Positions 34,135 through 54,160 of a DNA stretch of 64,000 bases are shown piece by piece. Source of the DNA: an uncultured candidate division Zixibacteria bacterium (GTDB lineage: Bacteria > Zixibacteria > MSB-5A5 > GN15 > FEB-12); assembly GCA_963735035.1 (NCBI GenBank), contig CAVTJJ010000004.1:800001-864000 (forward strand), written 5' to 3'. The first letter of the stretch is position 1. Every line of letters begins with the position of its first letter. The position numbers and the translations under genes were made by a program. A model generated the notes under the pieces. The model saw only the letters and a list, made by a program, of their open reading frames with translations. It was not told the origin of the DNA and made no database searches.

Positions 34135-34980
34135 TTTGTAGGCCGGTTCGTTGAAGACGAACCGGCTTTTTGTTGGTCGTAAGTGTCCGATGTGATTCAA
34201 GCCGAATCTTCGGTACCCACCCAACGGGTGGGAATTTGTAAACGGGGCGCTAGCCCCGTCATCCCGACGGAAGTCGGGACCCAGTTGTCTTGGTAAGTGC
34301 ACCAAAGCCAATGTTAGAACCGCCATGCGAAGGGAGTATTCGAACATTGATGAAATAATTCTGCAAACACAACTGGGCACCGGTTTTCACCGGTGTGACG
34401 GCCTCGCGGCCGTTTGAACACTATTACTTCTTGATGTGTATCTTCAGTACCCACCCAACGGGTGGGATCGTGATCGATCAGGTCACGCGTCACTGCTCCG
34501 TCATGCCCGACTTGGTCGGGCACCCATGACTACTCGCGATCGCAGTAGAGGGGGCCTCACAAGAGAAATGGAATTTGAACATCCTCTCCCGCCTTCGTCC
34601 TCATGTCGTCTCTTGCGGTGAGGCCAATGCGACAGCCCATGGATTCCCGGCCAAGCCGGGAATGATGGGGCCAGAAGGCGAAACTGACTGTGATACGTAG
34701 GTTGGGTTCACGAGTCTTGTAGCTCGGGATGCTTGTCATCCCGACATCGCGTTTGTCGGGACCTCGCCCCGGCGAGCAGGCACAAGGGTCCCGACCTGCA
34801 AGTGCGGTCGGATTTGTCGGTCGGGTTCACGAGGGTCTATCGAAGCGAGACGCGAGCAACCCGACAATCGCATCCTTGGGTGCCCCGCCTGAAGCGGGGC
34901 AAGAAAGTATCTACTTTGATCGGCAGGCCCCTGTGCCTGCCGAAGAGTACACGGCAGGGTTGGAACCCTGACGATCAAGA
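34135..34980. repeat. Large intergenic cluster of REP-like palindromes (at least 6 families)
   Basis: CCCACCCAACGGGTGGG twice, GTCATCCCGAC..GTCGGGAC, GTCATGCCCGAC..GTCGGGCA, CGGGATGCTTGTCATCCCG, GCCCCGCCTGAAGCGGGGC, TGATCGGCAGG element. Confidence 0.85.
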
Positions 34981-49874: not shown

Positions 49875-50294
49875 GCGGGTTTGAAGCAGACCCGCCCTAC
49901 TATCGGATTTGAATTCTTGTAGGGCAGAACCCCTTGTGGTTCTGCCAAGACTGTGCCCGGCAGATGTCCACATCTGCCGGGTTTCTTTTTGCGTGTGTGG
50001 GCCCTGGCGCGGAATCTCACCCGTTGGGCCTGTTGATCCCCCCGAATGTTGTTGCGTCAGGTCTTGCGTCGCCAAAGGCGGCGTGTGACCTGACGCGTTG
50101 CAGCGACTTAGGGAATCGATATCGTGCGTGGAATGATGCGAATTGAGCCAACACAGCTATTGTAGGTCGGGATGCTTGCCATCCCGACATACGATCCCAC
50201 CCGTTGGGTGGGGTACGGGTTGTTACGTGCGTGGTGGACGTCCTCGTCTACCACGTTCTCGTTAGCGTAAGTTCGACAACCCTTGGGTGCCCCC
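49875..50294. repeat. REP-like palindrome cluster downstream of groEL
   Basis: GGCGGGTTTGAAGCAGACCCGCCCTAC (inverse copy at 24305), GTAGGGCAGAACC..GGTTCTGCC, CGGCAGATG, GCGTCAGGTC, GTAGGTCGGGATG, CCCACCCGTTGGGTGGG. Confidence 0.85.
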
Positions 50295-51326
50295 CTAAGT
50301 TCACAAACGAAGTGCAACACCTGTTAAAGGTGTTGTCATGGAACGAACATATGCACAGATCAGTCTTGAAGAGCGGTGTGAGATTGCCCGCTTATGTGGC
50401 TCGGGGCGCTCGATTCGGCAAATTGCGGCAGCTTTGGATCGCGCGCCATCGTCCATTGCTCGGGAGATAACGCGAAATCGCAGCCGACAAAGCGGTTACC
50501 TGCCCGCCTGTGCCAACGACCAGAGCCGTGCCCGGCGTTGGACCGGCTCCAAATTGGATCGCCGTCCAGAACTGCGCGACATGGTAGTGATGGGACTATC
50601 TAATGGTTTGTCTCCGGAGTTGGTCGCGGGAAGGCTGGCCGTGGAGATGGGCCGGAAGGTGATTTCCTACGAAACGATCTACCGGTTTATCTACGCGCAG
50701 ATCGCCCGTACTAAGGATTACACTTGGCGGTACTTACTGATCCGTGGCCGAGCCAGACGTAGCTGGCGAGGGTGCAAGAGAGGTCGGTCGACGTCGTCTA
50801 TAGCCCTGCGGGGCCCTATCTCCGCGCGGCCGAAGAGCGCCAAGAGCCGGAAAACACCAGGACACTGGGAAGGTGATCTCATGAACTTCCGAATACCCGA
50901 TCAGAGCGTCCTTGTCCTTCATGAGCGGCGCTCACGCCTGATGATGGGGGTTAAGCTGCCAGCCAAAGATGCCGCCTCGGTTGCTAAGGCCATGTGCACT
51001 CTCCTGGCACCCTTGCCGCACGCGTGGCGACAGACCATCACCTTCGATAACGGCCCCGAGTTCGGCCAACACTACCAACTCCATGACCACGGTATCGAGA
51101 CCTACTTCTGTAACACCTACTCACCCTGGCAGAAAGGTGGCGTTGAAAATGGAATCGGTCGCCTCCGACGAGTACTGCCTCGCCATACCGACCTGACCAA
51201 ACTCTCGCCGAGACGGTTCGCAGACTTCTTTCAAATCTACAATAACACGCCTCGAAAATGCCTGGACTTCCTCACTCCAGCCGAGTTCTTTTGGCTCGAA
51301 CTGTTGCACTTCAAATGTGAATCCAG
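50295..51326 (+). mobile_element. IS30-family insertion sequence
   Basis: Imperfect 25-bp TIRs CTAAGTTCACAAACGAAGTGCAACA and CTGGATTCACATTTGAAGTGCAACA (reverse complement of the right end), 19/25 identical. Confidence 0.85.
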
Positions 51327-51336
51327 CCCCGCCTGA
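50338..51336 (+). CDS. IS30-family transposase
   Basis: HTH RSIRQIAAALDRAPSSIARE.RN; HWEGD, TFDNGPEF, PWQKGGVEN; stop codon lies just beyond the right TIR. Confidence 0.95.
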   Translation: MERTYAQISLEERCEIARLCGSGRSIRQIAAALDRAPSSIAREITRNRSRQSGYLPACANDQSRARRWTGSKLDRRPELRDMVVMGLSNGLSPELVAGRLAVEMGRKVISYETIYRFIYAQIARTKDYTWRYLLIRGRARRSWRGCKRGRSTSSIALRGPISARPKSAKSRKTPGHWEGDLMNFRIPDQSVLVLHERRSRLMMGVKLPAKDAASVAKAMCTLLAPLPHAWRQTITFDNGPEFGQHYQLHDHGIETYFCNTYSPWQKGGVENGIGRLRRVLPRHTDLTKLSPRRFADFFQIYNNTPRKCLDFLTPAEFFWLELLHFKCESSPA

Positions 51337-51450
51337 AGCGGGGCAAGACAGGAAGTAGACGAAGGGTACGAACACGAGTCGGCAGATGTGGACCCCGGAT
51401 CAAGTCCGGGGCAGGCTTTGCCGGGCACGTTTATACAGGAAGAGACTGAT

Positions 51451-51831
51451 ATGACAAATGCACCTGAACATTCCACCGTAGCTGTCCTGGGGGCATCGCC
51501 GAAGGAAGACCGCTATTCATTCAAGGCGGTGCGCATGCTCAAAGAACATCACCACCGCCCGATCCCAGTCCATCCGGCCGGGCATACGGTCGATGGCATC
51601 CCCGGCTTGAAATCGCTCGAGGATATCCGGGTGCCCGTGCACACGGTCACCTGCTATGTCAACGCCGCGATATCAGACGGAGAGTTTGACCGGATCGTCG
51701 CGCTCAAGCCACAGCGGGTGATATTCAATCCCGGCGCCGAGAACGAGAATCTGGCGGTGCGTCTTGAAGCTACCGGAATCGAAGTGGTCCGGGCCTGTAC
51801 TCTGGTGATGTTGCGCACCGGGCAGTTCTGA
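51451..51831 (+). CDS. CoA-binding protein (YccU-like)
   Basis: VAVLGAS....RYS, PVHP, VIFNPGAEN, ACTLV. Confidence 0.88.
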   Translation: MTNAPEHSTVAVLGASPKEDRYSFKAVRMLKEHHHRPIPVHPAGHTVDGIPGLKSLEDIRVPVHTVTCYVNAAISDGEFDRIVALKPQRVIFNPGAENENLAVRLEATGIEVVRACTLVMLRTGQF

Positions 51832-51894
51832 GGTGATCACTTTCTGGTGGCCCACCCGCTGCTATGTACTGTGTCAAGGGCTTTCTGTTCAGGC

Positions 51895-52070
51895 ATAGGA
51901 CTCGAACCAGTCTGCTATTCGTGGTCGCTGACTGGCAGCGCCACAGGCAATGTATCCGCTCGTGACCTGGCGAGGCAGGCAGACTTGCGGACGTGGTCTC
52001 GGTTGGCCCGAGCCACAGCGGGTGGGTCGCTGTTCTCGCGTTAGCTTGGTACGGTTCCGACTCCTTGGTT
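51895..52070 (-). ncRNA. Candidate bridge/seek RNA of the IS110 element
   Basis: Closing stem plus two isomorphic loops whose flanking segments match the target and the donor end. Confidence 0.75.
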
Positions 52071-52073
52071 ATC

Positions 52074-53132
52074 TTAGGCGGCCGCACACGGCTCATAGGC
52101 AACGTTATCAAGCAGAACCCGCCTGACTGCCAAGACCAGTCGTCGAGCTACCGCCACTATGGCTCGTTTGCCGCCGGCACGTTGCTTGATCCGGTTATAG
52201 ACCAGTTGTAAGTGTGGGTCCTTCCGAACGGCAATCCAGGACGATTCCACTAACAAGCCCCGAAGATAGCTGTTGCCCGTGCCGGTAATCCGACCCATCC
52301 GGACATGATCACCGCTGGAATACTGCGAAGGTGTCAGTCCCACATAAGCCGCCAATTGCTCAGCCCGTCCAAAACGACCGACCTCATGCAATTCCAACAG
52401 CAGAGCCATCGCCGTAATAACCCCTATGCCGGGAACGCTACTTAACAGCCGAACTCGATCACGATACTGTGGCAGTCGTGACAACTCCCGCAACAGTCGT
52501 GTCTGCAACGCCAGCTGGTTACTTACCAGATCGTACATCTCCAACAACCGCTCGTAGCTCGCCTGAGCCCAGACATCTGCCAAACACACCTGTCTCAGAC
52601 GCTCTAATAACGGACCGGTCCACCGACCCGTCCCACTGCACACTGAAATACCATATAAGGCCAACTCCGATTTGATCCGACTCTGAAGACGTACCCGATC
52701 TTGAACCAATTGACGACGACGACGTAAGACCTCTCGGTGACCCCGCTGACTCTCATCCGGAACCCAGACCTTCTTCAACAACCCTAACGACAGCAACCAG
52801 GCCAGCTTCCGGCTATCCCGCTTGTCCGTCTTCACCCGATTACCGTAGGCCATCGGCACCAAGCTCGGCGGCGTTACTACGCACTGACCACCCCACGCTA
52901 CCACACAGTCGTGCAGCCAAAAACCAGAAAAACCCGCCTCGTAAACCACGGACACACACCCAGGATCATACCGATCCAGCAAACACCGCAAAGACGCCCA
53001 ATCCCCGTTAATGCTGCCACAGAACAGTTCCACTTCTAACGTCCTCACCGTGACAAACCACTGACGCTTGTGAACATCCACGCCAACAAAAACAGCACTT
53101 CCCACTTCCGCTCCAACTTCGTACCTTCTCAT
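52074..53132 (-). CDS. IS110-family DEDD recombinase/transposase
   Basis: GVDVH, YEAG, KTDKRD, VPGIG, GLTPSQYSSG, AIVAVARRL; SD AGGAGG. Confidence 0.96.
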   Translation of the reverse strand: MRRYEVGAEVGSAVFVGVDVHKRQWFVTVRTLEVELFCGSINGDWASLRCLLDRYDPGCVSVVYEAGFSGFWLHDCVVAWGGQCVVTPPSLVPMAYGNRVKTDKRDSRKLAWLLSLGLLKKVWVPDESQRGHREVLRRRRQLVQDRVRLQSRIKSELALYGISVCSGTGRWTGPLLERLRQVCLADVWAQASYERLLEMYDLVSNQLALQTRLLRELSRLPQYRDRVRLLSSVPGIGVITAMALLLELHEVGRFGRAEQLAAYVGLTPSQYSSGDHVRMGRITGTGNSYLRGLLVESSWIAVRKDPHLQLVYNRIKQRAGGKRAIVAVARRLVLAVRRVLLDNVAYEPCAAA

Positions 53133-53324
53133 CTCGAGCCTCCTGTTCTAAGGATTTATCGTTGTCTTCAGACCACGATACGATACCTTGTCCGAACAGA
53201 GGCTCAAATCACGAACAGTATCATAGTTACTTGCGGGTGGGGTGAGGTTTCACTTGCATAGAACGCACAGCAAGCTGTGGGGTACCAGGCATTTCATTGC
53301 GAATGGGGACGCATCCTCGTCCGC

Positions 53325-54035
53325 CTAGGTCTCGTCGTGATCCAGCCAGGTTAGCTTGGACATTTTGGCCTTGATGGCCACCGTCGCGGTGTCGACCATT
53401 TCTTCCACATCCATAAGGGCGGAGTTGAGAATCAGGTCGTAGTGATGCGGATCGTCGATGTTGTGGTTAAACAAATGCGCGACAAACTTGCGCCGGTCGG
53501 CATCAGATGCTTCGATCGACCGCTCGGCTTCCACCGGAGAAATCTGTTTGTACTTGACCAGGTTCTCGATCCGCTTGTCACGCGGGCAAACCACGCGAAG
53601 GTGAAAACCGCGCTGCGGTCCGAGGATGAAACTCCCGCCGCGTCCCATCAGCACCACGCCGCCGAGCTGCGACATCGACAGCACCGTTTGGCACAGGTGC
53701 TGGCCGTAGTCGCTGTAGTCGACCGATTGTCCCGTGAGAATTGTCTCGGCGAGTAGTTCGATCCGTCCGCGAAAGCGATCGTCGATCGATTCGATAATTC
53801 GTTTGCGAAGCCCCGATGATCGGCAGATCATGTCGATGGCTTCCCGATGCAGGCGCTGATAGCCGAGGCGTGAAGCGAGGCGCGATCCGAAATAGGAACC
53901 GCGACTGCCGGTCTGACGGCTGACCGTAATAATCGGCGCCGGATGAGGGCGACCCTGGATGGCCGGTTCGGTCTCTTTCTTCTCAAGTTCCCACTTGAGA
54001 AGCTGTCGATTTATGATGGCTTCTATCGAGGTCAT
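53325..54035 (-). CDS. Cytidylate kinase-like family protein
   Basis: ITVSRQTGSRG, VLMGRGG, D..R..F, YDLILN; SD AGGAGG. Confidence 0.85.
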   Translation of the reverse strand: MTSIEAIINRQLLKWELEKKETEPAIQGRPHPAPIITVSRQTGSRGSYFGSRLASRLGYQRLHREAIDMICRSSGLRKRIIESIDDRFRGRIELLAETILTGQSVDYSDYGQHLCQTVLSMSQLGGVVLMGRGGSFILGPQRGFHLRVVCPRDKRIENLVKYKQISPVEAERSIEASDADRRKFVAHLFNHNIDDPHHYDLILNSALMDVEEMVDTATVAIKAKMSKLTWLDHDET

Positions 54036-54160
54036 GGGCAGTACCTCCTGAGTAAAATATAGCGGATTGTTGAAAGTAGGCAACAACCTTGTAGAGTGCC
54101 ATTCCTGCCAATCTTGACACTTCACTCCCGGCTTTGGCCGCGCTATATTCCGGCAGCTCT

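Follow-up and report, generated by a model that had tools for sequence, protein, structure and literature searches.

An IS1111-type insertion sequence of an uncultured Zixibacteria bacterium, with a predicted 3′ guide RNA, a REP-like target and a predicted circle-junction promoter

The stretch of 64,000 nucleotides described here, hereafter the window, comes from an uncultured candidate division Zixibacteria bacterium (GenBank assembly GCA_963735035.1, contig CAVTJJ010000004.1, positions 800,001 to 864,000 of the forward strand). At 51861-53231 it carries a 1371-bp insertion sequence (IS), a length that counts one copy of the core dinucleotide (53230-31), with the transposase gene on the minus strand. 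We consider it highly probable that this is an intact and recently active IS1111-group element of the IS110 family, whose DEDD recombinase would be guided by an RNA encoded 3′ of its gene. As such, it is a new member of the IS1111 group in which every part fits the published model and no mechanism is new. An initial annotation of the window had already proposed an IS110/IS1111 element here, with its ends, core, palindromic target and junction promoter; what it lacked is a predicted RNA of bridge/seekRNA-like structure, encoded within the 213 nt that follow the transposase gene. The element, its gene and its junctions with the target, which resembles repetitive extragenic palindromes (REPs), are located as follows.

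51861..53231, minus strand: insertion sequence, with 5 full copies at 99.8-100% identity in the genome plus an error-rich contig-end duplicate
51846..51860, plus strand: REP-like target half GGTGGCCCACCCGCT, including the target-side CT core (51859-60); right flank in transposase orientation, identical at 5/5 copies
53232..53241, plus strand: other half of the REP-like target, TGCGGGTGGG; left flank in transposase orientation, identical at 5/5 copies
51862..51872, no strand assigned: sub-terminal inverted repeat of the right end (transposase orientation), CTATG-TACTGT on the plus strand; ACATAG-N-AG end in 28/45 elements
53215..53226, no strand assigned: sub-terminal inverted repeat of the left end (transposase orientation), reverse complement CTATGATACTGT; holds the -10 box TATGAT at 53220-53225 (minus strand)
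53230..53231, no strand assigned: second copy of the CT core (AG in transposase orientation), read in all copies
52074..53132, minus strand: transposase gene, 352 aa, recognised by its open reading frame (ORF) and domain matches; protein 100% identical in all 5 copies

The boundaries can be read directly. The CT dinucleotide, AG in transposase orientation, is found at both junctions (51859-60 and 53230-31), as previously proposed, and the repeat is exactly 2 nt long, since the adjoining bases differ (G/A before, G/T after). Excising 51861-53231 in silico fuses CCCACCCGCT to TGCGGGTGGG and restores the perfect palindrome CCCACCCGC-TT-GCGGGTGGG, which is the hairpin that the initial annotation had reconstructed. 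Terminal inverted repeats are absent, and the target is not duplicated outside the 2-nt core, as is typical of the IS110 family, and the AG core is found at both ends in 27 related loci as well. The sub-terminal inverted repeats, which we read at 51862-72 and 53215-26 just as had been described, are 11/12 bp long, within the 7-17 bp of IS1111 elements, and are set in by 1 nt and 5 nt from the two ends of 51861-53231. The distribution of non-coding sequence, 213 nt downstream versus 99 nt upstream of the transposase gene, is also that of the IS1111 type. The extent first given, 51851..53240, includes the element but is too narrow for the sequence common to all 5 copies, which reaches from 51846 to 53241.

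The assignment of the transposase follows from its domains and from its relatives. Pfam matches cover the N-terminal DEDD/RuvC-like part (DEDD_Tnp_IS110, PF01548, E 1.4e-12) and the C-terminal part (Transposase_20, PF02371, E 2.4e-25), and the NCBIfam equivalog NF033542, "IS110 family RNA-guided transposase", is matched with 226.7 bits against a cut-off of 140. Compared with solved structures, only the C-terminal third (residues 219-346) aligns, to the transposases of IS621 and ISCro4, with E values of about 1e-11. D19, E65, D103 and D106, which we take to be the DEDD tetrad, are invariant or nearly so among 23 aligned homologues, as is the C-terminal GL-P----S(T)G motif, here G265-L266-T267-P268 ... 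S273-G274. The length of 352 aa, against about 330-350 aa for the group, is 2 above the IS1111 range quoted in PMC11187229. Homologues of the transposase number thousands, of which the best non-self matches are 91, 88 and 85% identical and the rest at most 69%.

A scan of one genome per species gave 80 loci at 38-66% amino acid identity, in metagenome-assembled genomes (MAGs) labelled Zixibacteriota, Ignavibacteriota, Deltaproteobacteria and others. We kept 44 loci (handles beginning with L) with a near full-length, uninterrupted match; 5 loci were excluded for internal stops and 1 because its downstream sequence was too short. The strict ends, [flank] AG NNN CTATG ... CATAG N AG [flank], are present in 28 of 45 elements, counting our own and the 44 loci, so the family membership proposed earlier agrees with both the domain matches and the same end architecture in 27 related loci. 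In four genomes with several copies (L037/38/44, L054-57, L058/59 and L062-64), the similarity of the flanks ends after 3-5 nt on the left side and 7-12 nt on the right. A search for the longest inverted repeat between the ends of relatives returned mostly chance 8-mers, and ends were therefore located by their motifs instead. In one 66%-identical Zixibacteria element (L021:2560-2764), guide and flank agree only once the right end is moved outwards by 3 nt to take in an extra CAG; this is either a small end duplication or a different end register.

The assembly of the source genome (G000; 6 contigs, 3.6 Mb) holds five full copies of the element, 99.8-100% identical, and the proposed ends and core recur without change at the junctions of all of them. 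Every copy lies between GGTGGCCCACCCGCT and TGCGGGTGGG, outside which the sequences are unrelated, so that the stretch common to all five is 51846-53241; the target repeat adds GGTGG on one side. Apart from these, there is a partial, error-rich copy at a contig end (G000:C3:988512-989185), whose flank is that of the copy at C4:3747-5115; it is probably that same copy assembled twice, with the end of C3 overlapping the start of C4.

The exact reconstructed empty site does not occur in the assembly of the source genome. In G002, a genome of the same genus, it occurs 22 times exactly and 22 times with one mismatch, against 0 for a reversed-pattern control, and G002 is the only carrier of the site among 40 related genomes. 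At all 5 of the 22 exact G002 sites whose flanks were read, the uninterrupted sequence is GGTGG-CCCACCCGCTTGCGGGTGGG. The best match to the transposase in G002 is an IS110-family protein of 29% identity, the best among the 40 relatives reaching 66%. The ends and the core are therefore independently supported, and the half-palindromes are not the terminal repeats of a longer element. An orthologous empty site was not found in G002, where the gene for the protein with a coenzyme A (CoA)-binding domain is present (75% nucleotide identity) and the sequence downstream differs and lacks the repeat.

What would direct the element to this palindrome is the predicted RNA. In IS1111 elements, the guide RNA is encoded downstream of the transposase gene, and its match to the top strand lies 5′ of its match to the bottom strand (PMC11187229); in the bridge RNA, the left target guide (LTG) pairs with the bottom strand and the right target guide (RTG) with the top strand, each pairing including the core (PMC11208160). 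The corresponding segments in the window are these.

51897..52066, minus strand: bridge/seekRNA-like structured region of ~170 nt, with a predicted closing stem (52053-52066 with 51897-51908), target-binding loop and donor-binding loop
52017..52026, minus strand: guide 1 (RTG-like), RNA CCCACCCGCU, complementary to the core plus right flank, AGCGGGTGGG, on the top strand; DNA form CCCACCCGCT
51984..51990, minus strand: guide 2 (LTG-like), RNA CCGCAAG, identical to the left flank plus core and so complementary to the bottom strand
51912..51918, minus strand: guide 3 (like a left donor guide, LDG), RNA AUAGCAG, identical to the right end of the element plus core

Relatives have the same three types of match at corresponding positions, each with its own flanks. 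For the RNA alignment, we used 17 of 21 distinct elements, leaving out L054, L056, L060 and L062, in which the region is much longer. The RNAalifold consensus has 23 pairs, 16 of them with compensatory changes. From an outer stem it passes to an internal loop, in which guides 1 and 2 lie, then to an inner stem-loop and finally to a second stem-loop between the donor-side segments. When guides were taken at fixed alignment columns (16 cognate pairs per test, with one dropped in each for too short a flank), guide 1 agreed with its own flank at a mean of 8.25/10 positions versus 4.16 for non-cognate flanks, and guide 2 at 6.31/8 versus 3.86; neither value was reached in any of 10000 permutations. 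The two sides of the closing stem (the first 20 nt past the stop codon and the 12 nt past the donor guide) also belong together, with -11.9 kcal/mol for cognate versus -9.55 kcal/mol for non-cognate combinations (1/2000 permutations). In the donor guide, ATAG[C/T/G]AG, the fifth base equals the last base of the right end, being T in L008, L054-57 and L058-59, and G in L017 and L052.

The closest relative with flanks, a metagenome locus (L124) of 90% amino acid and 87% nucleotide identity, is inserted in CCCACCGCA|AG|CGGTGGGG. Its guide is CCCCACCGCT and its flank AGCGGTGGGG; thus, guide and target have changed together, with a shift of one base. Elements with non-palindromic targets, for instance L037 (ACATCCCTCT), L081 (TGTCAGGTCT) and L017 (CGACTATCT), give the same positional guide matches. 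An RNA with loops complementary to both target and donor is accordingly predicted, and such a guide RNA would explain the target choice of the element. By analogy with IS621, ISEc11 and ISPa11, we infer that the RNA is made and bound by the recombinase.

The occupancy of the target in the source genome can be compared with the guides. All five exact targets are occupied (5/5), in contrast to none of 12 near-variants (8 with one mismatch, 4 with an indel), every one of which is uninterrupted. All 12 empty variants deviate within the core or the bases that would pair with guide 1 or guide 2; among the near-match sites are some with a single mismatch to the 10-nt right-target guide, at its position 1, 2, 5 or 6. 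Exactness of the target is thus strongly associated with occupancy. Whether the lineage reads its full 10-nt guide at single-mismatch stringency, and retargets through small changes of the guide that track the REP variant of its host, is a proposal that we make tentatively and regard as somewhat unlikely. If it were true, the genome would amount to a natural saturation experiment for an RNA-guided recombinase, and the element would be a compact candidate for high-fidelity bridge recombination, in a lineage that also carries a conserved junction promoter and a leader hiding its ribosome-binding site.

In insertion sequences of the IS492/IS621 type, the -35 and -10 boxes lie in opposite ends, and a sigma-70 promoter arises only once the element is circularised. 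The same sequence pattern is present here. Joining the ends by script gave one promoter-like site, on the minus strand and facing the recombinase gene, in which TTGACA and TATGAT are separated by 17 nt and match the consensus at 11/12 positions, just as in the joint that had been drawn up beforehand; in the integrated state (51700-53400), no promoter-like site was found on either strand. Among 5000 random joins of 60-mers from the genome, 0 reached 11/12 and 84 reached 9/12. The -10 box lies within the left sub-terminal repeat listed above, and the -35 box in the opposite end.

51872..51877, minus strand: -35 box TTGACA of the predicted circle-junction promoter, at least 5/6 at the same position in 15/21 distinct elements

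The hexamers are 17 nt apart in all 28 elements, and 19 of the 21 distinct elements match the -10 box at 4/6 positions or better. TTGAC is not part of the inverted repeat, and the opposite end holds no mirror image of it; its conservation therefore speaks for selection on a promoter. On the sequence pattern and its conservation, we think it reasonably likely that the predicted junction promoter works; that a circle forms and its junction promoter is active would accord with IS621, ISEc11 and ISPa11.

The 99-nt leader upstream of the transposase gene has a conserved feature of its own.

53199..53207, minus strand: conserved 5′ leader segment UUGAGCCUC, predicted to form 8 pairs with the complementary Shine-Dalgarno region, GAGGCUC (53136-53142)

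Both UUGAGCCUC and GAGGCUC are nearly invariant in 15 of 15 related elements, a conservation without covariation, and this suggests that the leader may sequester the ribosome-binding site.

Taken together, these features lead us to propose the following mechanism. An RNA encoded 3′ of the transposase gene would guide the DEDD recombinase, one internal loop carrying the two target guides and a second loop at least one donor guide, AUAGCAG, matching the right end and core. The guides would place the element at the central AG (transposase orientation; CT on the plus strand) of the REP-like palindrome GGTGGCCCACCCGCTTGCGGGTGGG, in the one orientation that the asymmetric TT/AA centre of this palindrome would set. 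Excision as a circle would join the ends across one copy of the core, giving the predicted junction CATAGC-AG-TAACTATG (transposase orientation), and this joining would assemble the TTGACA-17-TATGAT promoter reading into the transposase gene.

Several observations weigh against this reading of 51861-53231, or against parts of it. The strict end patterns fail in 17 of 45 elements, owing to truncated contigs or to variant motifs such as ATATAG. The empty near-variants are few, and the 8 substitution variants would fall within 15 of 20 guided positions by chance with p ~0.1. As for the right donor guide, the element holds no segment of at least 5 nt complementary to the core plus left end; a candidate before the second stem, TTAC-N-T, needs a 1-nt bulge and shows non-complementary changes in relatives with a TCA left end, and GTGACT in L068 and L081, tried for the same role, belongs to the closing stem. 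In IS621, the right-donor pairing is discontiguous (PMC11208160). Single-sequence folds of the window copy fail to give the consensus target loop: their z values are -1.45 for the 213 nt and -3.16 for the 170-nt core, with -2.37 for a sibling copy, and the minimum-energy structures differ from one another and from the consensus, for which reason we relied on the alignment-based consensus. Compared with its four siblings, the window copy has an extra G at 51978, an extra C at ~53135 and a T/C difference at 53156, all non-coding. The extra G would be a bulge in the outer stem of the target loop and is absent from the four siblings and from contigs of metagenome runs X1 and X4; either a mutation of this copy or an error of the assembly may account for it. 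The assembly lacks the junction 20-mer, and no read of a circle junction or an empty site was seen in public data, where the best-matching DNA run contained 0.35 of the sampled words and the metagenome contigs of X1-X4 were short, of low depth and without joints, leaving 52944-53263 uncovered.

Some of these points bear on alternative explanations. The one that we take most seriously, although we hold it to be unlikely, accepts the element as described and denies that TTGACA and TATGAT form a working promoter: the hexamers would serve recombinase binding or recognition of the ends, and the transposase, as in ISPpu9, would be expressed by read-through or from a promoter inside the element. TATGAT does lie within the sub-terminal repeat, where its conservation may reflect recombinase binding; the -35 box falls below 5/6 at that position in 6 of 21 distinct relatives; and the transposase gene is co-directional with an upstream cytidylate-kinase-like gene (53325-54125), which makes read-through possible. 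Moreover, ISPpu9, a member of the same family that targets REPs with the same AG core, forms circles, and yet its junction fusions show no promoter activity (PMC12288879). The general statement of the initial annotation that IS110-family elements excise as circles and form junction promoters is thus not universal. Against this alternative, TTGAC, although outside the inverted repeat, keeps its 17-nt distance from the -10 box in 15 of 21 distinct relatives, an 11/12 match arose in 0 of 5000 random joins, and the integrated element has no promoter-like site, all of which favours a working junction promoter.

The other two alternatives concern the element and its RNA. The 3′ structure might be a regulatory small RNA, a terminator or an mRNA-stabilising element, its flank matches stemming from the copying of part of a palindromic target. 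An Rfam scan of 51500-53600 with E up to 1 matched no family, the palindromic target makes 9 bases of guide 1 (CCCACCCGC) read like the other arm as well, and Ssr9, downstream of ISPpu9, was first described as a regulatory small RNA (PMC12288879). Nevertheless, relatives with non-palindromic targets keep the same positional matches, three separate segments track three different DNA partners, and the sequence scan yielded no terminator-like site, and we consider this explanation very improbable next to a guide RNA. Even less credible to us is the idea that the palindrome halves belong to the element, which would make it a 1396-bp IS (51846-53241) with 9-bp perfect terminal inverted repeats (CCCACCCGC/GCGGGTGGG) and no specific target. 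The five copies do share 51846-53241, beyond 51861-53231, and the two halves are perfect inverted repeats; however, the palindrome is uninterrupted at the 22 exact sites of G002, with only its 29%-identical protein, and at the 12 near-variants in the source genome, and the conserved ends of relatives stop at AG-NNN-CTATG and CATAG-N-AG, beyond which the sequences differ and match the guide of each element. An IS1111-type element of 1371 bp with a predicted guide RNA therefore remains our preferred interpretation.

The surroundings of the element contain further repeats and mobile sequences. The insertion lies between two convergent genes, one for a CoA-binding-domain protein (plus strand, ending at 51831) and the cytidylate-kinase-like gene on the minus strand. 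The palindromes that the initial annotation had related to the target, near 34216, 34450 and 50196, do exist (CCCACCC-NNN-GGGTGGG) and turn out not to be copies of it, being of a different subfamily with a 3-nt loop: this subfamily, GTAC-CCCACCC-AAC/GTT-GGGTGGG (34216-34232, 34450-34466 and 50196-50212), has at least 12 copies in the genome, and the IS makes no use of it. A second palindromic repeat is present in an imperfect copy, CACAGC-AA-GCTGTGGGG, at 53265-53282, about 25 nt away from the element. Its family, CCACAGC..GCTGTGG, with 47 plus-strand matches genome-wide, is the target type of a related Zixibacteria element (L011; guide CCCACAGCT), and no element with an L011-type guide was found in the source genome. 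An IS30-type element with a 332-aa ORF (HTH_38 and rve domains) occupies 50338-51356, some 500 bp short of the IS1111-type element; sequences 91-96% identical to its last 350 bp are present at 8 further genomic sites. Furthermore, the annotated GTG start of the CoA-binding gene (51388) falls within a repeat of about 50 bp (51380-51432), which may be a small mobile or regulatory repeat; the source genome has it again at C4:1192522 and C6:329963 (91-98%), and G002 has it 11 times (85-97%). We also considered a link between the target repeat and REP-associated transposases and rejected it: the genome has 6 matches to Y1_Tnp, which resemble such transposases (C4:1466644, C3:433887, C3:865329, C6:22391, C3:165272 and C4:8010), and none of the six has the IS target repeat within 1.5 kb. 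One of the six loci has a CCACAGC..GCTGTGG palindrome nearby.

The value of the element lies in a clean annotation and in natural data on guide-target co-variation and target saturation. It is an apparently active IS1111-type element from an uncultured lineage whose ends, core, target, guide RNA, predicted promoter and leader hairpin can all be annotated by sequence alone, and it accounts for the five 1.37-kb repeats of the genome, in which every landing site offered by one REP variant is taken. Its roughly 20 relatives with different targets, together with L124, retargeted by one base, constitute a small natural data set on the reprogramming of guide RNAs.

Among known systems, ISPa11 targets REPs. 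It also has a defined target logo, and our element resembles it, along with ISEc11 and ISKpn4, in its DEDD transposase (about 340-350 aa in those elements), its GL-P----SG motif, its sub-terminal inverted repeats, its long downstream non-coding region, the same order of guides, and its site- and orientation-specific insertion (Siddiquee et al. 2024, PMC11187229). It differs from these three in belonging to another transposase lineage, with similarity to solved structures confined to the C-terminus, and in having another target; its relatives were found in uncultured Zixibacteria, Ignavibacteriota and deltaproteobacterial MAGs. It resembles IS621 (Durrant et al. 2024, PMC11208160; structures including 8WT6) in its targets of REP type and in its predicted two-loop RNA, where the core dinucleotide is part of both the left and the right guide; IS621 also reconstitutes a promoter across its joined ends, which here is a prediction. 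In IS621, by contrast, the RNA lies in the left end upstream of the gene, the sub-terminal repeat is 2-3 bp long and the order of the guides is reversed (PMC11208160), and the similarity of the proteins is confined to residues 219-346 (E 1.5e-11). Finally, ISPpu9 and ISPpu10 of Pseudomonas putida are, like our element, IS110-family insertions in REPs with an AG dinucleotide at both ends (PMC12288879; bioRxiv 10.64898/2026.03.19.712850). ISPpu9 has an antisense RNA and no junction promoter (PMC12288879), whereas the joined ends here give a near-consensus predicted promoter; ISPpu9 also has a structured 5′ leader that inhibits translation (PMC12288879), and ISPpu10 has identical stem-loop targets (bioRxiv 10.64898/2026.03.19.712850), as does the element described here.

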